Shown: positions 421 to 52,800 of the stretch, piece after piece
Layout: each line of letters begins with the position of its first letter
Numbering within the stretch: the first letter of the stretch is position 1
From: Shigella phage SHFML-26
Sequence record: KX130862
Length of the DNA stretch: 64,000 bases
Reading direction: 5' to 3' (one strand)
Notes under the pieces: model-generated
The model's database searches: none
The model's input: only the letters and a program-made list of their open reading frames with translations
What the model was told of the DNA's origin: nothing
Program-made: the position numbers and the translations under genes

Positions 421-457
421 CTCCAAATCCGTATCAGTTGATAGTTGTATAGTACCA
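421..457 (-). repeat. conserved promoter-leader cassette CTCCAAATCCGTATCAGTTGATAGTTGTATAGTACCA (copy 1)
   Basis: Near-identical copies at 27018-27054 and 54181-54217; partial copies at 52752-52777, 57783-57803, 8420-8441. Confidence 0.6.
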
Positions 458-494
458 CGGTCCTTGTGGTATGTAAACCATTTTGTGAAATTTT

Positions 495-4935: not shown

Positions 4936-4965
4936 ATTATACCACATCCTTGTGGTAAAGTAAAC
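4936..4965 (-). promoter_or_regulatory. T4-type early promoter (GTTTAC -35, 18-nt spacer, TATAAT -10) for rIIA.1-rIIA-rIIB
   Basis: Minus strand reads GTTTACTTTACCACAAGGATGTGGTATAAT. Confidence 0.6.
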
Positions 4966-9586: not shown

Positions 9587-10126
9587 TTATCTCATTTCAA
9601 TAAAATCTACAAGTTCAGCATGGGATTTACGGAACATTACTTGGTGTCCGCCAATAATAACTTGGTCATCTGGCACTTCGTATACAGCAAGATAAAATCC
9701 TTTAGAAGATAATTCTTCACGCTCTTCTCGTGTGAACCATCTCATCATATCATATTCGCTAGCGAAAGCAAAATGATAAAGAGCTACAAACCATCCGGGA
9801 ATATGATATTCTACTCCAACATAATCTTTCTTGAACTTAGTATTAATTACGATATTAGCATTTTTAACTAATAGTTTGTCTTCGTGCGGAAGAGGAATTC
9901 TTTTATTATCATTACTATGATGCATAAAATTAGGTCTGTCATAACCTACGTGTAATAACCACTCTTCACTCCATGAATCTATTATACTTCTATATGGCGT
10001 TATTTGAACACAAAGATTTCGACGTATTGTTATAGCATCTTCATAATTAAGAATACTAAAAGATGATTCAACACGATAAATTTTCATTTTATTATCCTCA
10101 GTAGCTATGGTGTTATAATACCACAA
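9587..10126 (-). CDS. hypothetical protein
   Basis: ORF track; early promoter at 10113-10144. Confidence 0.5.
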   Translation of the reverse strand: MWYYNTIATEDNKMKIYRVESSFSILNYEDAITIRRNLCVQITPYRSIIDSWSEEWLLHVGYDRPNFMHHSNDNKRIPLPHEDKLLVKNANIVINTKFKKDYVGVEYHIPGWFVALYHFAFASEYDMMRWFTREEREELSSKGFYLAVYEVPDDQVIIGGHQVMFRKSHAELVDFIEMR

Positions 10127-10144
10127 CTAACCGAGGAAGTAAAC
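10113..10144 (-). promoter_or_regulatory. T4-type early promoter
   Basis: GTTTAC ... TATTAT on minus strand. Confidence 0.5.
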
Positions 10145-10150
10145 AACTTT

Positions 10151-10834
10151 TTATCGTTTTGTTGGAAGAGACAGAGGATCGCATTCTTCCTCTGACGGAG
10201 CATCTTCAAGACCCATAGCATATCGCAAAGCATACTTCATCATCAGGATGTCTTTCGCACAGTCATGAATAGAATCATGCGCAACGAATCCATCTAAAGT
10301 TCCTTTTGGAAGAGGACATGTGGTCATATCACGAACAAGCAGAAGTGCTTCAATTCTGGTACGAATATCACGCTGATTCCAGAATTTACACGGTTCTAAC
10401 TTAAATGTATCAAGCTCATTCTCAGAAACGCCATTAAGACGTTGAATATCACGAATGAGATCGACTAAAATTGGAAAATCAAACGACATTCCACGGCACC
10501 AACCTTGAGATTTCCAAGGATCGATATTATGTGCATTGATGTAATCATTAAATTTTGCAATACCGTCGATAGTGCTTACATCTTCATCGGACGGTGCAAT
10601 ATTTTTTCGAGCTTCAGGGGATTGATTCTTCCACCATTCGATAGTGCTTTTAGTAAAAAGACGGTGTCCTTTTTGGCTTTTTAAATCAAATTTGATTTTA
10701 ATGCCACGTGAAACTAATTCATCGAATGTTTCAACGACTTCTGGATTAGGGTCAAAAGCAATTACAGCTAAATCAATAACAGCTGCCTTTTCGCCGCTTC
10801 CCATTGTTTCAAAATCTATAATAAAATCAAACAT
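10151..10834 (-). CDS. dexA: exonuclease A (DexA), DEDD-type 3'-5' exonuclease
   Basis: 227 aa; N-terminal DFETMG motif; recognised DexA sequence. Confidence 0.8.
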   Translation of the reverse strand: MFDFIIDFETMGSGEKAAVIDLAVIAFDPNPEVVETFDELVSRGIKIKFDLKSQKGHRLFTKSTIEWWKNQSPEARKNIAPSDEDVSTIDGIAKFNDYINAHNIDPWKSQGWCRGMSFDFPILVDLIRDIQRLNGVSENELDTFKLEPCKFWNQRDIRTRIEALLLVRDMTTCPLPKGTLDGFVAHDSIHDCAKDILMMKYALRYAMGLEDAPSEEECDPLSLPTKR

Positions 10835-42620: not shown

Positions 42621-43447
42621 AATAATATCCAATTTTTCCAAGCTTCATCAGTAGAATTACAGCGTTTTAGTATAAGATGTCTAGAAACTTTTATGGCATT
42701 TGAGCACTTTTTAATTGAATCATATTTAATACCGTCAACTGAAACGGTTTTGCTAGTTGGAGAAATTTTTCCATACATTGGATTTTTTGAACCAACTTGA
42801 AGTCCTTTTAAAGCTTTTGAAAGCTTTTGTCTAGATTCCAATGACATGGGAGAATTCTTTTTACCTTCAATAATTCGCTTGCGATGAAGTTCGCGTTCTT
42901 CTTCACTCAAAGAATTGTAATATTTTTTAACACCGTTTGATATAGATAATTTATCTTTCTCAGACCGCTCTCCAGCTAATTTACTTCTAACATCTTTTCG
43001 CTTCATAGCTATGCTTACGGCTTTATTTAAATTTGCTTGATGCTCTGGCGTACGTTTATATTTCTTTAAAGCACGTGAAATAGCTATTTTAGTTTCTTCT
43101 GTTCTCTTTTTACCTTTATTTGCTAAACTATTTTTGTGGCGATGTTCAAGTGTCTGTTCATAGGCAGTTCCACCTTTTCCACCAGGTTTAATATTATATG
43201 TATTTTCTTTTAGACAATACTCTTCAGTTACAAGTTCAGCTTCTTTATCATACATTTGCTTTTCATTATCAAAAACATATAAAATTTCTTTATAAAAATT
43301 TTTTCTACCATATTTTAATAAAGCAGCACGAATCAATGTTCCTGATCCCATATAACCGTCATTTATATTATCGGTGCTATGCGCACCGATATATTCCTTT
43401 GAATTAATTATATTTGTTATTTTATAAATTATATAATACCTATGCAT
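42617..43447 (-). CDS. free-standing GIY-YIG homing endonuclease
   Basis: N-terminal GIY-YIG motifs (YYIIYKITN...EYIGAHS...YMGSG); overlaps nrdG start and nrdD end. Confidence 0.7.
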   Translation of the reverse strand: MHRYYIIYKITNIINSKEYIGAHSTDNINDGYMGSGTLIRAALLKYGRKNFYKEILYVFDNEKQMYDKEAELVTEEYCLKENTYNIKPGGKGGTAYEQTLEHRHKNSLANKGKKRTEETKIAISRALKKYKRTPEHQANLNKAVSIAMKRKDVRSKLAGERSEKDKLSISNGVKKYYNSLSEEERELHRKRIIEGKKNSPMSLESRQKLSKALKGLQVGSKNPMYGKISPTSKTVSVDGIKYDSIKKCSNAIKVSRHLILKRCNSTDEAWKNWILL

Positions 43448-45257
43448 GTTTTACTCGTTTTACCATTTCTTTCATTTTACCTAAATTCCATGGAACAACG
43501 CTAGGAGTTCCAAGATATCCGCATGTTCTTCTTATTGTATTCATCTTTTTAGGATCAGTTTCTCCACAAATAGAACAAACAAATCCGTTTTCAGTAGGAG
43601 TCATTTCATGGGTACTTCCGCATGTAAAACACTTATCTACTGGCATGTTAACACCAAAATAATCTAAATGTTGTACAGCATAATCCCATACAGCCTCAAG
43701 ACCTTTTAGGTTATTTTTCATATCAGGAAGTTCAACATAAGAAATGTGACCACCTGTCGCAATGAAATGATATGGCGCTTCACGAGAAATTTTTTCAAAC
43801 GGAGTAATATTTTCTTCTACTGAAACGTGGAAACTATTAGTGTACCAGCCTTTATCGGTAACATCTTTTACACTTCCATATTTTTCTGTATCAAGTTTAC
43901 AGAAGCGATAACAAAGGTTTTCAGCAGGAGTCGAATATAAACTAAAAGCAAATCCAGTTCTTTCAGTCCACTGTTTAAGATGAGCATTCATTTTAGTTAA
44001 AATTTCTTGTCCAATATCACGACCGACAAGAATATTCAATTCGTGAATACCAATGTATCCTAGGGACACTGAACTTCTACCATTTTTAAATAACTCAATT
44101 ATATCGTCATCAGGTTTAAGACGAACCCCGAATGCACCTTCTTGGTAAAGAATAGGAGCAACAGTCGCTTTAACTCCTTTTAAGGAACTAATTCTACACA
44201 TCAAAGCTTCAAAACATAAATCCATTCGTTCATTGAATAATTCAACAAATTTCTGTTCATTGAACTGTGTTCCAATATAAGAATCTAACGCGATGCGAGG
44301 AAGATTCAGTGTTACAACACCAAGATTATTACGTCCATCAAGAATTTCATTACCAGTCGAATCTTTCCATACGCTCAAGAAACTACGGCAACCCATTGGA
44401 GAAACAGGAATAGATGAACCAGTGATAGCTTTATTGTTCTTAGCTGAAATAATATCAGGATACATTCTTTTGCTTGCACACTCTAGAGCAAGCTGCTTAA
44501 TATCATAGTTCGGATCGTCTTTATAAAGATTAACACCTTCTTCAACAAACATAACAAGCTTAGGGAAAATAGGAGTTATCCCATCACGACCAAGACCTTT
44601 AATACGATTTTTCAGAATTGCTTTCTGAATCATTCGTTCAGTCCAGTCAGTTCCTGTACCAAATGTAATTGTTACAAAAGGAGTCTGTCCGTTTGAACTA
44701 AAGAGAGTATTTACTTCATATTCATAAGCTTGGAATGCATCGTATACGTCTTTTTCTGTTTTAGATTGAGCATAATTTAACGCATCAGCGATTTGCCATT
44801 TTTCTGCATCCTCAATATGTTTTGCATAGGTGCGTTTAACATAAGGAGAAAGTACTTTATCTACATTAGCAAAAGTCGTTCCGCCGTATTGGTGAGAAGC
44901 AACCTGTGCAGTAATTTGTGCCATAATTGCAGTAGCAACGCCAATTGATTTAGGAGTTTCAATCTGCGCATTACCTAGCTTAAATCCGTTCTCAAGCATT
45001 CCTTTTAAATCTACTAAACAGCAATTAGTAAATGGAAGAGCAGGGGAATAATCAATATCGTGGAAATGAATAATTCCGCTTTCATGCGCTTTCATAATAA
45101 AAGACGGGACCATATTTTTGGCAATGTGTTTAGACACAATACCAGCCATAAGGTCCCGTTGAGTTGGAAAAACACGAGAATCTTTATTAGCATTCTCGTT
45201 TAAAAGGTCTTTATTAGTTTTATGAATCAATCCTTCAATTTCTTTTTCAATTGTCAT
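43440..45257 (-). CDS. nrdD: anaerobic ribonucleoside-triphosphate reductase NrdD (intronless)
   Basis: 605 aa; C-terminal glycyl-radical region and Cys-rich zinc site; continuous ORF. Confidence 0.9.
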   Translation of the reverse strand: MTIEKEIEGLIHKTNKDLLNENANKDSRVFPTQRDLMAGIVSKHIAKNMVPSFIMKAHESGIIHFHDIDYSPALPFTNCCLVDLKGMLENGFKLGNAQIETPKSIGVATAIMAQITAQVASHQYGGTTFANVDKVLSPYVKRTYAKHIEDAEKWQIADALNYAQSKTEKDVYDAFQAYEYEVNTLFSSNGQTPFVTITFGTGTDWTERMIQKAILKNRIKGLGRDGITPIFPKLVMFVEEGVNLYKDDPNYDIKQLALECASKRMYPDIISAKNNKAITGSSIPVSPMGCRSFLSVWKDSTGNEILDGRNNLGVVTLNLPRIALDSYIGTQFNEQKFVELFNERMDLCFEALMCRISSLKGVKATVAPILYQEGAFGVRLKPDDDIIELFKNGRSSVSLGYIGIHELNILVGRDIGQEILTKMNAHLKQWTERTGFAFSLYSTPAENLCYRFCKLDTEKYGSVKDVTDKGWYTNSFHVSVEENITPFEKISREAPYHFIATGGHISYVELPDMKNNLKGLEAVWDYAVQHLDYFGVNMPVDKCFTCGSTHEMTPTENGFVCSICGETDPKKMNTIRRTCGYLGTPSVVPWNLGKMKEMVKRVKHA

Positions 45258-46588: not shown

Positions 46589-46798
46589 TTAACCCCGAAG
46601 CTTATTAAGTTCTTCATAATCAATCCAGGATTCTAGTCCTGATGGCAAATCAGATTCAATTTCCCAAAGAAGCTCTTCAATTTTCTGAAGACGATCTAGT
46701 TCTTCAGCTGGAATAGTAACCATTGATGGAGTTCTTGATACACTAATATCGTAAATCATATTTACCCCAGTTTGACCATGCAATCGCCGTATTTCCAC
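46589..46798 (-). CDS. hypothetical protein
   Basis: ORF track. Confidence 0.4.
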   Translation of the reverse strand: MEIRRLHGQTGVNMIYDISVSRTPSMVTIPAEELDRLQKIEELLWEIESDLPSGLESWIDYEELNKLRG

Positions 46799-46977
46799 TT
46801 AGAAATAGACTTTTCGCCATTAGAATAATAAACTTCGAGTTTAGCACGGTTATTTTTAATTTGAATAACCTTGGCTGTCATTAAAGTTCCATACCCATAG
46901 TAAACTGCAACTTCATCACCTACATATACCGCGCTTCCGCGGTAATCATGGATATAATCAGTTCCTTCGAGCATCAT
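46762..46977 (-). CDS. hypothetical protein
   Basis: ORF track. Confidence 0.4.
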   Translation of the reverse strand: MMLEGTDYIHDYRGSAVYVGDEVAVYYGYGTLMTAKVIQIKNNRAKLEVYYSNGEKSISKWKYGDCMVKLG

Positions 46978-47481: not shown

Positions 47482-47782
47482 TTTCTTCTCGGTCAAATCG
47501 GTGTTTACAATGGCGACATTTATAACGAAGATTACTAGTCTGCCAATGGACCAATTGCACCTGTTCAGTTCCACATTCAGGGCAATTAGGAACGTTTTTA
47601 GAAGCACGTTCGCGGCGTTCAACCATGACCATTACAGAATCCCAATTAATAGGGCTGCTATAATCATCACAACCATGAATCTTTCCACGCATTTCCAAAT
47701 CGTCTTCTTCACCGGCCATAATAATTTTAATTAAACTGGAATTACTTGAAGCTGCAATGTCTTCTAATAGACGCTTTTTCAT
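47468..47782 (-). CDS. zinc-ribbon protein
   Basis: CPECG...CRHCKH motif. Confidence 0.5.
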
Positions 47783-48708
47783 TTCAATACCTCAATAGCA
47801 TTACGTAAACCATTTGCTTTTGCATTAAGAGCTTTTAACAATTTGGTGTGTTCTGCAATTTGGGCTTCAACTTCAATCAAACGAGCATTGAGATATTCGC
47901 GTTCTTCACTCAGATTATCAGCCTTTTCTGCTTTAGGTTCTTTTACAACTTGCTTATATGTATTAGGGTTCTTCAGTTTAATTAGAATGCGTGAACTGTA
48001 CAGCATTGAACCATTATCTTCGGTTTCGTCATACATTTCCACTACGTCCATCATCTCCACCATCGTGCAGAGTTTATAAGACAACGAACGAATAATTTTG
48101 TTGTGCTTATTAATTTCTCTAGCTGTCATGGTGCCGAGATTACGTGAGTAATAATAAGGAACCTGGATATTAATTAATACTGATGAACCACCTGGCTTGT
48201 GTGTTACTTCATCAGCAATAACCCAATCCTTAACATGAACTGTATTTGTACGGTCATCGCCCGCGGTAAATAGTTTACGAGCATGCTTAAAAAGCATATT
48301 CACTTGGTCATTGAATTGACAAGCGAATTTATCAGCAAATTTAGTTTCGGGAATGGTAGATAACCAATCAGCCAAATGGGTCCTTTTAACATCGTTAACA
48401 ATAGTAAATTCAACCAAATCGGTTATAGATGTCTCAGATTTAATGAAGCTCGGCTTCATAAAGTTTTTAATGTTATCACTAGCTACAGTAGAAGATAACA
48501 GACGAGAACGTTTAAACCATTGAAGCAAATTGCCTAACGAATGAGAATAAGCGTTCTGAGTATCTTTACAGATATGATTTTCCTGGCCAACATATTGAAG
48601 GAAATCACGAAGAATATTATTGATTACTGCCCTGTGTCCTATCTGATAATTACGATGTTTAGTAATAAGACTGTCAAAATAATCAATATAATGTTTACGA
48701 GTTTTCAT
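47779..48708 (-). CDS. hypothetical protein with C-terminal coiled coil (array member 1 of 4)
   Basis: ORF track; heptad-like tail. Confidence 0.55.
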   Translation of the reverse strand: MKTRKHYIDYFDSLITKHRNYQIGHRAVINNILRDFLQYVGQENHICKDTQNAYSHSLGNLLQWFKRSRLLSSTVASDNIKNFMKPSFIKSETSITDLVEFTIVNDVKRTHLADWLSTIPETKFADKFACQFNDQVNMLFKHARKLFTAGDDRTNTVHVKDWVIADEVTHKPGGSSVLINIQVPYYYSRNLGTMTAREINKHNKIIRSLSYKLCTMVEMMDVVEMYDETEDNGSMLYSSRILIKLKNPNTYKQVVKEPKAEKADNLSEEREYLNARLIEVEAQIAEHTKLLKALNAKANGLRNAIEVLK

Positions 48709-48760
48709 GTTCTTCTCACTTTGTTAATGGTTTATACTCCGAGCCATCCTTGGCTTTAAA

Positions 48761-49762
48761 TTACTTAATTAACTGTAAAGCTTGTTCAAGACGATCCAGG
48801 CGATTAACAGATTCTTCCCAAATCCTTTTAGCCTGCTCATATTCTTTCTGTGCTTTATTAGAAATTTCTAGAACTTCTTTATAAGCTTTTTCTAGTGCAA
48901 TAACTTCTGGACGAATTTCTATCGGTTCAGGTGAATCGTCAAGACATTCCATTAGTTCCTCAAGGGTAGTTTCTTCTTTAGGAGTATTCACAATTTCATC
49001 ACATTTTTGTTGGTAAATTTCTTTATCAGTCGGTGAGTACGCGCACTTTACTTCACGAAGACTAACTACAATTTTATATCCTTCCCAACCACCCATATTT
49101 TTGAAAGGATATGTATGAATACTTTTTACAGTTTCCATACAATCCAAAGCCGTCTCTAATTGATGAGTTATAGTGCTAGCAATTGAGAAAAATTTATTAA
49201 TATTCTTTTGGTTAGCTTCTGGTGTAAAAAATTCGTAATTCACAAAAATAGCTACTTTATTTTTATCAAGCTCATATTCTTTTACGATAATCATATCAGA
49301 AGCCAAAGGATGAATTTGACGATAATCGCCATAACATAATTTAGAAGCTGATTTTAGAATTTGTCCTTTAAAAAGTCTGAAATTACTAATCCAACGACGA
49401 GTAAAAATATTCTTAGGGTCTTCTTTGATATTAAGATGATAAGAATTAACATCACCGAACCAATTGTATCCTATTACACCTTTAGTTCGTTTAATTTCTT
49501 TCCCAAAATTATCAAGAATATCCCGATTAACCAAATATGAAAGAAGACGAGACCCTTTAAAGGTTTTCTTGATAACATCTTTATCTACACGGCTAGAAAT
49601 TTTACGAATTTCATGAATAAATTTAGTAGAAGAAACAATACTTGCATCAATACTACTGAGCCATTGATTGATAATAGAAAGAACAGCGTTCTGACTAGAC
49701 ATGGGTTTAACTTTATCATCAATAACCCTATTGAATGATTTGATATATTCGTTACGAGTCAT
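48761..49762 (-). CDS. hypothetical protein with C-terminal coiled coil (array member 2 of 4)
   Basis: Start moved to MTRNEYIKS behind GAGGAG because early promoter -10 overlaps track start. Confidence 0.55.
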   Translation of the reverse strand: MTRNEYIKSFNRVIDDKVKPMSSQNAVLSIINQWLSSIDASIVSSTKFIHEIRKISSRVDKDVIKKTFKGSRLLSYLVNRDILDNFGKEIKRTKGVIGYNWFGDVNSYHLNIKEDPKNIFTRRWISNFRLFKGQILKSASKLCYGDYRQIHPLASDMIIVKEYELDKNKVAIFVNYEFFTPEANQKNINKFFSIASTITHQLETALDCMETVKSIHTYPFKNMGGWEGYKIVVSLREVKCAYSPTDKEIYQQKCDEIVNTPKEETTLEELMECLDDSPEPIEIRPEVIALEKAYKEVLEISNKAQKEYEQAKRIWEESVNRLDRLEQALQLIK

Positions 49763-49790
49763 ATTAATCTCCTCAGTAGAAAGTAAGAAC

Positions 49791-49820
49791 ATTATACCAC
49801 ATCCTTGTGGAAAAGTAAAC
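49791..49820 (-). promoter_or_regulatory. T4-type early promoter inside coiled-coil gene array
   Basis: GTTTAC ... TATAAT. Confidence 0.55.
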
Positions 49821-50842
49821 TAGTTCAGTGCATTTAGTGCATTGTTCAGTTTAGAACGTTGCTTCGTAAGATTTTTGACTTTTTCTTGAGCTTTTTCCAG
49901 CATCTTTTCAGCTTCTAACACTTCATTAGTTGCTTTAACAAGTTCATCATCTACTGCCTTGATAGACTTCTCAATCGCATCCGCGTGCCATTTTTCAACA
50001 GGTTTAAGACTCGGATTTTCAACAGGAAGAAAATTCACTTTATTAAATTTCCATGCGTCTTTATTACCTGAGCTATACATCCAAAATTTAGGATCGTTTG
50101 ATGAGCAATTAGATAAATTTAAGTTATCTTGCACTTCCTGCTTTTTCTCTTGCGGGACTTCGTCCTTTCTCAAAAAATCGTATTTAAATGAAACGATCAT
50201 ATCAAGTTCATATGTTGTTGTATGTTCCCAATTTCGCTCAAAACGAGGTAAAATCTTAGATTGAACAGCAGCAACAACATCCATATACTTAAATGCTTCT
50301 GTCAGCTGTGATTTAAGACATTCACAAATTGAAAGAGAATTTTTAGTATTAGGCTTAAAGCTAATTCGTGCAGTTCTATTATTTTCTTTTAATGGTCTTA
50401 CTTCCATCTGAAGAGTATAACCATCAAATTTCAGATTCTTTAAGTTAATATCAGAGCCTTTTAATCGACTAGCAGTAGACAAAATTTGCTTTAATTGTCT
50501 ACGGAACAGAGCAATAAATCTCCATTCAATACGATAATGATTTGGATTGAAAAATCCAGATGATAAATCGACCTTACTTTGACCAACGCCTTGAACAATC
50601 AAAGGATTTTTATAATCAATAGTTTTACAGAAATCGGTGAGCTGTTCACGAGCAGTCATTTGCGTAATATACCCTGCTTTACTAAAATTACGCACCCATT
50701 CGCTGCTATTCAGATATTTAAAGTGATGAATAGCACGATTAACTTTATCAGGGTCTAAATTATTTTCACACAAAAATGTCATAACATCACGAGTATAGCT
50801 GGCATTACGAACCATATCTTCAATTTGAGAACGAGTTTTCAT
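49820..50842 (-). CDS. hypothetical protein with C-terminal coiled coil (array member 3 of 4)
   Basis: ORF track. Confidence 0.55.
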   Translation of the reverse strand: MKTRSQIEDMVRNASYTRDVMTFLCENNLDPDKVNRAIHHFKYLNSSEWVRNFSKAGYITQMTAREQLTDFCKTIDYKNPLIVQGVGQSKVDLSSGFFNPNHYRIEWRFIALFRRQLKQILSTASRLKGSDINLKNLKFDGYTLQMEVRPLKENNRTARISFKPNTKNSLSICECLKSQLTEAFKYMDVVAAVQSKILPRFERNWEHTTTYELDMIVSFKYDFLRKDEVPQEKKQEVQDNLNLSNCSSNDPKFWMYSSGNKDAWKFNKVNFLPVENPSLKPVEKWHADAIEKSIKAVDDELVKATNEVLEAEKMLEKAQEKVKNLTKQRSKLNNALNALN

Positions 50843-50850
50843 AGTGTTCC

Positions 50851-51756
50851 TTAAGATTTAAGTAAATCGACAATTTTAATTAACTTTTCACGCTCAGATT
50901 TAGCTTTACTACTCAGTCCAGATAGTCTGAAAATTTCATCATCATATTGTTGAATAGAAATATTTAGCTCTTCAATCTGCTTATTAAAATAAGCAATTTG
51001 TTCAGAATGTTTTTCATTACTACGAACTGGTACAGGTTTTGTAGGCAATTTAGTTGAACTGGATTCATCTGGGCGATAAATTAAAATACAACTTGAACCA
51101 ATCGGACATTTAGCACCAGACACATATTCTAATGTTCCGGCTTCTTTTAAAACTTCAAAAGCTAAACAGAGATGATGCCCCATATTAACATAATCAGTAG
51201 AGCGAGCTCTGATGTAATAATCATCTCCGCGAATACTAAATTTAAAGCATTTAAGGTCTTCTGTATTATTGGTCTTAAAAATCATTTGTTTATCTAGACC
51301 TTTAGCTAATCGAGCGCCTAATGCTAATAATCGTCGTTGATTTTCCCACAAATCCGCAATCATTTGATCGAATGACAATTTCGGCATTAGTCTACCATAA
51401 AGGTCATATCCTTTATTATAATTGCGAAGAATTTCACTCGCGTTAATACGAGACAACGCTCCAATTTTATTAAGGGCTTTCATGATGCGATTAGATAAAC
51501 TCATTCCAGACCCGTTTGTTCGCTGTAAATGTTTTTCTAATCCAAATCCAATATCAACTTTAAATTTATCTAAAATTTTGGCATGAACATCTCTGTCAAT
51601 AACATTCAAATCCAAAGTTGGGTTAAATCTATGAAAAAATTTATCTGGCTCTCCACGACGAAGTACAGTCCATTCATTCATCATTTTTTTATTAACTAAA
51701 GATTTAATTACTGCATTGACATTATTAATTACTACTGACATATTTTCCTCACTCAA
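50851..51756 (-). CDS. hypothetical protein with C-terminal coiled coil (array member 4 of 4)
   Basis: ORF track. Confidence 0.55.
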   Translation of the reverse strand: MSEENMSVVINNVNAVIKSLVNKKMMNEWTVLRRGEPDKFFHRFNPTLDLNVIDRDVHAKILDKFKVDIGFGLEKHLQRTNGSGMSLSNRIMKALNKIGALSRINASEILRNYNKGYDLYGRLMPKLSFDQMIADLWENQRRLLALGARLAKGLDKQMIFKTNNTEDLKCFKFSIRGDDYYIRARSTDYVNMGHHLCLAFEVLKEAGTLEYVSGAKCPIGSSCILIYRPDESSSTKLPTKPVPVRSNEKHSEQIAYFNKQIEELNISIQQYDDEIFRLSGLSSKAKSEREKLIKIVDLLKS

Positions 51757-52157: not shown

Positions 52158-52212
52158 AATAATCTCAATTAAAAGGGCTTAGAACCATTATACCATCCTT
52201 GGTATAAAGCGG

Positions 52213-52740
52213 TTATGCGAGTACCGTCTTTAACCGTTCTTCAAACTTCCGAAGAGTATTCTGGCGTTCAGCTCTTTGCTTTTTGTAAGTTTCAATACGC
52301 TCTGAAATGAGAGTGTATCGTTCATTTACTGATTCTTTCATAAAATCAGGAATTTCACGAGAAGCTTTAATCTCATCAAATTTATCAATAACAGCTTGCT
52401 CTTCAGCAATTAAGTTATCATACATCAAAATATCTTTCTTGATGAACTCAATATCTTCTTGAGTTACACGAGATAATTTAGATGCTTTATCCTTTTTGTA
52501 TTGTTCGTTAGTATCACGAGACCAGTGTAATGTACGATTTTTATTCGTATTCTTGTAAATTTCTACAATACCAATCTCATCAATAATAACGATCCAATTC
52601 CAACGGGATTTGTAAATTTGTCCTCCATCAACTGTAATTTCACCTCCGATTGAGATGTCATTAAAGAACTTGCTTTGTGCTTCAGATTTAAATTTACCAT
52701 CGTTGTAATTTACCAGGTTGAAAATATCTTTAGCGTTCAT
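52213..52740 (-). CDS. hypothetical protein
   Basis: Start moved to MNAKDIF behind GGAGG and early promoter. Confidence 0.5.
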   Translation of the reverse strand: MNAKDIFNLVNYNDGKFKSEAQSKFFNDISIGGEITVDGGQIYKSRWNWIVIIDEIGIVEIYKNTNKNRTLHWSRDTNEQYKKDKASKLSRVTQEDIEFIKKDILMYDNLIAEEQAVIDKFDEIKASREIPDFMKESVNERYTLISERIETYKKQRAERQNTLRKFEERLKTVLA

Positions 52741-52800
52741 TTTGTGTTCCTCCGTAGTTGATAGTTGTATAGTACCACAGAGGAACGGTCTTGTAAACAA

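Follow-up and report, generated by a model that had tools for sequence, protein, structure and literature searches.

The question raised by positions 47779 to 51756 of a 64,000-nucleotide stretch of DNA from Shigella phage SHFML-26 (sequence record KX130862; the whole stretch is hereafter the window) is whether four consecutive genes of similar length have a common origin, and what they do for the phage. A first-pass annotation made from the sequence alone had listed them as minus-strand open reading frames (ORFs) of 309, 333, 340 and 301 amino acids (aa), and had read them as a diversified paralog family to which no function could be assigned. We have established that all four ORFs are paralogs of one family. 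On the question of function, that annotation has to be revised, as the 340-aa ORF is NrdC.5, whose T4 ortholog is known to act against the Dsr1 defence. The source of the window is T4-like, a coliphage of the genus Tequatrovirus, and the gene names were assigned from the T4 reference annotation as follows.

47779..48708, minus strand: nrdC.3, 309 aa; phrog_1435 (E 4e-115); member of the paralog family, and the most allelically variable one.
48761..49762, minus strand: nrdC.4, 333 aa; phrog_1435 (E 6e-166) and precomputed Pfam family PF26897; AlphaFold2 (AF2) model with a predicted local distance difference test score (pLDDT) of 85; member of the paralog family.
49820..50842, minus strand: nrdC.5, 340 aa; DUF7235, Pfam PF23882; ortholog of the T4 anti-Dsr1 gene.
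50851..51741, minus strand: nrdC.6, 296 aa from ATG; phrog_2257; AF2 model with a pLDDT of 77; most divergent paralog.
50851-51756, minus strand: longer form of the nrdC.6 ORF, 301 aa from TTG.

All four adjacent ORFs are present, but the product of nrdC.6 is more likely to have 296 aa than 301 aa. The start of the 301-aa form is a TTG without a ribosome-binding site, and the ATG at 51741, five codons downstream, is preceded by GAGGAA; a product that starts there has 296 aa, like the database homologues. A 343-aa version of nrdC.4 was rejected because its start would fall within the promoter of nrdC.4 itself, and the length of 333 aa is therefore correct.

The relationship among the four proteins is scarcely visible to ordinary comparison. 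BLASTP linked only NrdC.3 and NrdC.4 (25.6% identity over 160 aa), PHROGs groups just these two, and Pfam splits the four into three families. Searches of PDB sequences, NCBIfam and Pfam returned only noise for three of the proteins, such as a weak XerD N-terminal match and designed helical repeats. The XerD match, to the core-binding domain at the N-terminus of tyrosine recombinases, covers residues 30-86 of NrdC.3 at E 0.0015, far below the cut-off, and is probably noise. Pairwise alignment and HHpred had been proposed as checks of the family, and it was the comparison of profiles that joined all four proteins. We built the profiles from homologues plus orthologues of Mosigvirus, Dhakavirus and a related coliphage and compared them with hhalign. 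The strongest pair was NrdC.3 and NrdC.4 (E 2.5e-13, 224 columns), followed by NrdC.4 and NrdC.5 (E 8.7e-6, 164 columns, all within the globular part), NrdC.3 and NrdC.5 (E 3.9e-3, 232 columns), NrdC.5 and NrdC.6 (E 4.1e-3, 85 columns), NrdC.3 and NrdC.6 (E 6.6e-3, 66 columns) and NrdC.4 and NrdC.6 (E 0.099, 100 columns), against E values of 0.13-0.81 for reversed-profile decoys across families (n = 12). With shallow profiles NrdC.5 and NrdC.6 stayed unlinked, and both were resolved by the orthologues of other genera and a merged profile. The latter, made of NrdC.3, NrdC.4, NrdC.5 and three bridging sequences, matched NrdC.6 at E 1.5e-8 with a probability of 95.5%, when its reversed decoy gave 0.35. 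In addition, the single-copy member of Klebsiella phage F48 matched NrdC.5 (4.5e-8), NrdC.4 (1.2e-6) and NrdC.3 (1.7e-4) over its full length, including the tail.

Two collinear motifs line up in every pairwise alignment. Motif 1 is approximately F-x-x-S/G-x-L-S-x-x-x-A-x-x-x-L-x-N-F-x-K, and motif 2 is F-x5-Q-I-L-x-S-A-S-R/K-L-x-x-G-D. Because the profile-profile E values lie beyond those of the decoys, the motifs are collinear and the models of two members have common structural neighbours, we conclude that the four genes are paralogs, and the proposal of a diversified paralog family is upheld. The globular N-terminal domains are divergent, as had been described, but these heads are homologous and not unrelated.

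The two models were made with AlphaFold2, run with alignments on NrdC.4 and NrdC.6. From motif 1 onwards both models show the same order of secondary structure elements, namely helix-helix, a short beta strand, helix-helix-helix, beta-beta, alpha, beta-beta, a linker and the tail. Foldseek against BFVD returned for both models the same six uncharacterised Straboviridae proteins of 300-370 aa (E 1e-7 to 1e-3, template-modelling score 0.3-0.5), which come from phages of Enterobacter, Pectobacterium, Acinetobacter, Klebsiella, Erwinia and Yersinia. The NrdC.4 and NrdC.6 models also match two adjacent genes of Acinetobacter phage Acj61, beside nrdC. By their order of elements and their shared neighbours, the models point to a probable common fold in these two of the four members. 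A weak resemblance in fold was also seen between the core and phage tail-terminator and tail-completion proteins (lambda gpU, SPP1 gp17-like and T5 p142). The order of secondary structure elements in the two models is not thioredoxin-like, and none of the four proteins matched a thioredoxin family in Pfam and NCBIfam scans. The label "thioredoxin", which nrdC.3-nrdC.6 carry in many GenBank records, appears to have spread from the gene name nrdC.x, and the present analysis corrects this mis-annotation for hundreds of phage genomes, some of them of therapeutic candidates.

Each of the four proteins had also been described as ending in a heptad-rich tail of about 50 aa. We scored all window ORFs of at least 100 aa (n = 73) with a home-made heptad score that rewards hydrophobic residues at positions a and d and polar or charged residues at the other five (b, c, e, f and g), with a penalty for Pro and Gly; the score is crude and is not COILS or Marcoil. 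On this crude score the tails of the four proteins took ranks 1, 3, 4 and 5 of the 73, and the adjacent proteins outside the family scored 2-5. The tails, together with one neighbouring gene of high score, are the following.

47782..47916, minus strand: NrdC.3 tail, approximately residues 265-309; heptad score 12.7, rank 3 of 73.
48764..48910, minus strand: NrdC.4 tail, a single predicted helix of residues 285-332; heptad score 12.2.
49823..49987, minus strand: NrdC.5 tail, approximately residues 286-340; heptad score 14.3, the window maximum.
50854..51015, minus strand: NrdC.6 tail, a predicted helical hairpin of residues 243-272 and 278-295; heptad score 12.1.
52213..52743, minus strand: nrdC.8, 176 aa, a neighbour two genes away; heptad score 13.1, rank 2 of 73.

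When positions are counted back from the C-terminus, all four proteins have the same best heptad register, and their ends share the pattern L(d)-x3-hydrophobic(a)-x2-hydrophobic(d)-K/N(e). The tail of NrdC.5 is almost invariant across orthologues, and the tail is also kept in homologues from Klebsiella, Citrobacter and Acinetobacter phages. When the NrdC.3 tail was aligned in register with the NrdC.5 tail, E was 6.7e-4 (decoy 0.07); for the other pairs, homology of the tail taken separately was indistinguishable from composition. Thus the architecture of a globular head with a heptad tail is real and non-random. With respect to the coiled coil that had been assigned to each tail, heptads with hydrophobic a and d positions in a long stretch free of Pro and Gly were found in all four, and helices are predicted for the two modelled tails. 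By DSSP assignment, the NrdC.4 model ends in a solitary 48-residue helix. In the NrdC.6 model a disordered linker is followed by a helix-turn-helix, so that the heptad pattern holds throughout but the tail of NrdC.6 is predicted as a helical hairpin and not as one long helix.

The C-terminal end of NrdC.8 is similar (L-x-x-x-L-x-x-V-L), and its N-terminus looks beta-rich. We considered it as a fifth family member and rejected it, since hhalign gave E 0.12 or worse against all four profiles. We also noted a 173-aa protein (P0231) whose tail is 100% identical to the NrdC.5 tail of the window, on an unrelated N-terminus without a match in the phage collection. It occurs on a lone 803-bp metagenome contig and may be a chimeric assembly or a true tail swap; it was treated as unverified or chimeric, and not as proof of tail swapping.

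It may be asked whether the shared architecture could be convergent, with four unrelated genes that each end in an amphipathic helix. The failure of plain BLASTP to join more than one pair, the division of the four genes into three families by Pfam and PHROGs, and the presence of a similar tail on the non-homologous NrdC.8 would all agree with such an origin. However, convergence does not explain profile-profile E values down to 1e-13 with decoys at 0.13 or worse, the bridging sequence of F48, the collinear motifs, or the same order of secondary structure elements with shared structural neighbours. We therefore regard it as effectively refuted.

The family was found only in T4-like phages (Straboviridae), beside nrdC. 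The 3978-bp array region is present in 648 phage records, and has 96.7% identity to RB3 and RB14 and 96-97% to many other Tequatrovirus genomes. The array is flanked on one side by NrdD, endonuclease VII, Pin and the NrdC thioredoxin, and on the other side by NrdC.10 (AAA-like) and NrdC.11 (nucleotidyltransferase). The numbers of copies beside nrdC are given below.

Tequatrovirus: 4 copies.
Mosigvirus ST0: 3 copies (NrdC.6-, NrdC.5- and NrdC.3-like).
Dhakavirus E33 and phage 212: 3 copies (NrdC.6-, NrdC.5- and NrdC.4-like).
Acj61: 2 copies.
Marfavirus, Jiaodavirus and Moonvirus: 1 copy each.

Thus the family grew from one or two copies in distant genera to three or four in coliphages. Slopekvirus KP15 has no detectable copy beside nrdC; its protein KP15_227 (319 aa, with a helical tail) was considered as a member and rejected, as no similarity was detectable. 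An exhaustive search with a hidden Markov model profile of NrdC.5 found 13 clusters only among 1.84 billion representatives, and the NrdC.5 branch is therefore very narrow.

Judged by sequence identity, the paralogs evolve far faster than the flanking genes. Between the window and Mosigvirus ST0, the identity is 25% for NrdC.5 and 32% for NrdC.6, with NrdC.3 as the exception (75%), compared with 91% for NrdC, 89% for endonuclease VII, 84% for NrdC.8 and 79% for NrdC.10 and NrdC.11. The same holds for Dhakavirus E33, where NrdC.5 (24%), NrdC.4 (45%) and NrdC.6 (51%) stand against NrdC (87%), NrdC.8 (70%), NrdC.10 (78%) and NrdC.11 (82%). Within Tequatrovirus, NrdC.3 of the window has only 60% identity to T4 NrdC.3, and the immediate neighbours have 96-100%. 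Across the phage collection the distribution of NrdC.3 is strongly bimodal: some 356 records have an identity of 90% or more and some 272 have 60-80%, and only 4 lie in between, at 80-90%. Within each family, the two core motifs and the tail are the best conserved parts, and the N-terminus and the beta-alpha-beta region are the most variable. This combination of a conserved tail with variable heads suggests a common oligomerisation or docking module that carries specificity-determining heads.

Altered members are common, and laboratory phages often carry broken ones. In the T4 reference, nrdC.6 (NC_000866, approximately 10067-10200, corresponding to approximately 50940 in the window) has a 1-nt deletion (ctaaatatt to ct-gatatt) that frameshifts the tail; the +1 frame still encodes an intact tail, and the change is a mutation of the laboratory strain or a sequencing error. 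In T2 and vB_EcoM_G8, nrdC.4 is split into two annotated ORFs, and fragments of 155-158 aa occur in BFVD, which looks like pseudogenisation in some isolates. Another variant (P0161) is a fusion of NrdC.5(146-272) to NrdC.3(135-309) at a short shared FN..VN.L motif, with nrdC.4 deleted, on contigs of up to 167 kb. In Shigella phage Sf25 (P0001), residues 182-264 of NrdC.6 are duplicated.

One gene of the array had been credited with its own early promoter, and we confirmed this for nrdC.4. Its promoter, GTTTACT-N17-TGgTATAAT, is followed after 22 nt by a GAGGAG ribosome-binding site, and its spacer forms the hairpin CCACA-AGGA-TGTGG. T4, Dhakavirus E33, phage 212 and Mosigvirus ST0 all keep this promoter, and the stem changes are compensatory around a constant AGGA loop (ATCCA/TGGAT in E33, AACCA/TGGTT in ST0). 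In the window, all 15 matches to TTTACW-N17-TAYWAT fall on the coding (minus) strand, and the plus strand has none. A generic sigma-70 scan of the window showed no enrichment over shuffles (37 found, 36.9 expected), and the promoter call is therefore based not on that scan but on the T4-specific motif, which is conserved and biased to one strand. The restriction of the early motifs to the minus strand is consistent with the GC skew, which is negative throughout, and with early transcription that runs in a single direction over the whole window.

This element fits the T4/PST consensus for a promoter-early stem-loop (PeSL), TTTACW-N17-TAYWAT with a stem-loop (PMC4122927), in its sequence, its spacer stem-loop and its location, a hyperplastic region with variable genes beside it. 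PeSL cassettes have been described by Krisch and colleagues as mediators of modular gene shuffling in the hyperplastic regions of T4-type phages (PMC2839356, PMC4122927). They are a regulatory and shuffling vehicle and not a protein family, and say nothing on the function of the paralogs. The elements within the array are the following.

49791..49819, minus strand: early promoter of nrdC.4 with internal stem-loop (PeSL), TTTACT-tttCCACAAGGATGTGG-TATAAT.
48739..48753, minus strand: putative degenerate PeSL upstream of nrdC.3, with hairpin GCCA-AGGA-TGGC and then TATAAA; it shares a CCA-AGGA-TGG core with the nrdC.4 PeSL.

By its sequence, the hairpin upstream of nrdC.3 looks like a degenerate PeSL. 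Promoters of the PeSL type also occur at 4936-4964 and 449-477 (minus strand), with the spacer hairpin CCAC(A)-AGGA-(T)GTGG in common; the copy at 4936-4964 is nearly identical to the nrdC.4 PeSL, 45 kb away. A degenerate copy lies near 52190-52205 and precedes nrdC.7. Repeats of this kind could serve as recombination sites, and it is plausible that PeSL-mediated exchange lies behind the paralog sets, copy numbers and orders that differ among genera.

With regard to function, an anti-defence or host-takeover role had been suggested for the array, and a published phenotype of one member agrees with this. Srikant et al. (2022, PMC9391042) found that MG1655 with dsr1 is again plated on when T4 nrdC.5 is expressed. 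Dsr1, the defence overcome in this way, is a SIR2 NADase (sirtuin). The published primers SS-45 and SS-46 encode MKTRSQI...ALNALN*, the ends of the 340-aa ORF, which has 94% identity to T4 NrdC.5 and takes the same position between nrdC.4 and nrdC.6. Accordingly, the 340-aa ORF is the ortholog of the tested T4 gene. It is also the only one of the four to match the Pfam family of NrdC.5, PF23882, which it does over its full length at 432.6 bits (cut-off 30). Srikant et al. treat nrdC.5 as a lone uncharacterised early gene, and the flanking paralogs, the shared fold and the tail are absent from the literature found. For nrdC.3, nrdC.4 and nrdC.6, our literature search found nothing. A few genes away in T6, gp49.2 inhibits the OLD defence (2026 paper), and therefore the neighbourhood has other anti-defence content. 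Considering the phenotype of NrdC.5, the three other paralogs are good candidates for immune-evasion factors.

The Dsr1 sensor, a tetratricopeptide repeat (TPR) domain shared with Avs7, is reported to be triggered by the phage major capsid protein (2026 preprint PMC12803255). The precedent for a direct block of such a sensor is DSAD1, the anti-DSR2 protein of SPbeta-like Bacillus phages. It is described as likewise neutralising a SIR2-domain NADase that senses a virion structural protein, and as acting on DSR2 by direct binding. It differs in its target DSR2, which is triggered by the tail tube, and in its phage lineage, and the two systems would be analogous at most.

Based on these results, we infer a mechanism in which early-made Straboviridae paralogs oligomerise through their tails and block host immune sensors with their heads, and we consider this reading somewhat more probable than all others taken together. 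The family protein would begin with a helical N-terminus that varies, followed by a conserved core (helix-helix, beta-beta, alpha, beta-beta) with the two collinear motifs, a linker that is variable or disordered, and the conserved heptad tail of about 50 residues. The genes are transcribed early, at least nrdC.4 from a PeSL promoter of its own, and the proteins would be present minutes before the late capsid protein. After oligomerisation through the tail, the variable surfaces of the heads may attach to the sensor of a host immune protein and block it. In the case of NrdC.5, the target would be the capsid-triggered TPR sensor of Dsr1, which would be occupied, or the NADase would be locked, and NAD+ would not be depleted. 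NrdC.3, NrdC.4 and NrdC.6 may do likewise to other immune proteins or to other Dsr1-like alleles. Several points weigh against this mechanism. The phenotype concerns one of the four members, and there it is a genetic rescue only. The oligomerisation of tails between chains is assumed, and the tail of NrdC.6 is modelled as an intramolecular hairpin. The place of NrdC.5 in the fold is drawn from sequence profiles. Furthermore, the broken members in laboratory phages (nrdC.6 of T4, nrdC.4 of T2 and G8) fit dispensable accessory genes, and are silent on function.

A different role for most of the array is possible but considerably less probable. The family would be real, and NrdC.3, NrdC.4 and NrdC.6 would be early factors of host takeover or inter-phage competition, acting on host transcription, proteolysis or superinfection, with the anti-Dsr1 activity of NrdC.5 as a recent specialisation. 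Such a role would suit genes that are early, non-essential, fast-evolving and often lost, among which just one of four has a known defence target, and which have as a neighbour Pin, a Lon inhibitor and classic host-takeover factor. However, the sole member tested is anti-defence, the flanking gp49.2 is anti-defence too, and the genus-specific growth in copy number with allelic replacement is typical of arms-race genes. It is more doubtful still that NrdC.5 acts on Dsr1 indirectly, either by masking or chaperoning the capsid-protein trigger, or downstream of the loss of NAD+. The published evidence is genetic rescue only (PMC9391042), the trigger of Dsr1 is a phage protein, and the tail-terminator and tail-completion proteins that the core weakly resembles bind other virion proteins, all of which would be compatible with indirect action. 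On the other hand, nrdC.5 is early and the capsid protein is late, the Pfam and NCBIfam scans gave no enzymatic motifs or cofactor-binding families fitting NAD+ salvage, and the precedent of DSAD1 and DSR2 is described as one of direct binding. We also give little weight, as a speculative extension of sensor blocking, to the idea that the family is a Straboviridae-wide modular decoy platform. In this case, a core that derives from, or imitates, the fold of a virion neck or tail protein would be mounted on an oligomerising coiled-coil tail, each paralog would pre-occupy a different host pattern-recognition sensor of conserved virion proteins (TPR sensors of the Dsr1/Avs7 type, possibly other Avs or DSR receptors), and the array would be a multi-specific blocker cassette shuffled by PeSL.

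The genes and one of their functions were already known. What appears to have gone undescribed is that they form a family, that the tail is conserved and that the distribution spans Straboviridae. The array adds further candidates to the phage anti-defence proteins and is not a new kind of system. Sensors of the Dsr1 type are widespread, and their evasion by T4 has been known only as one gene name. The family nominates three more T4 genes, and relatives in Klebsiella, Citrobacter, Acinetobacter and other T4-like phages, as anti-defence candidates. The conserved tail and core, set apart from the variable surfaces, provide a guide for mutagenesis, and the paralogs, as naturally occurring variants in specificity, can serve to map the blocking of sensors.

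Two minor differences from T4 were observed on the NrdD side of the array. The window lacks homologues of the T4 genes 49.2 and 49.3 (tblastn E > 0.5), and at their position (46589-46977, minus strand) it has two small ORFs (69 and 71 aa) that are unrelated to them. The nrdD gene (43440-45257, minus strand) is an uninterrupted 605-aa ORF in the window, and the T4 reference gene is split by a group I intron encoding I-TevII.

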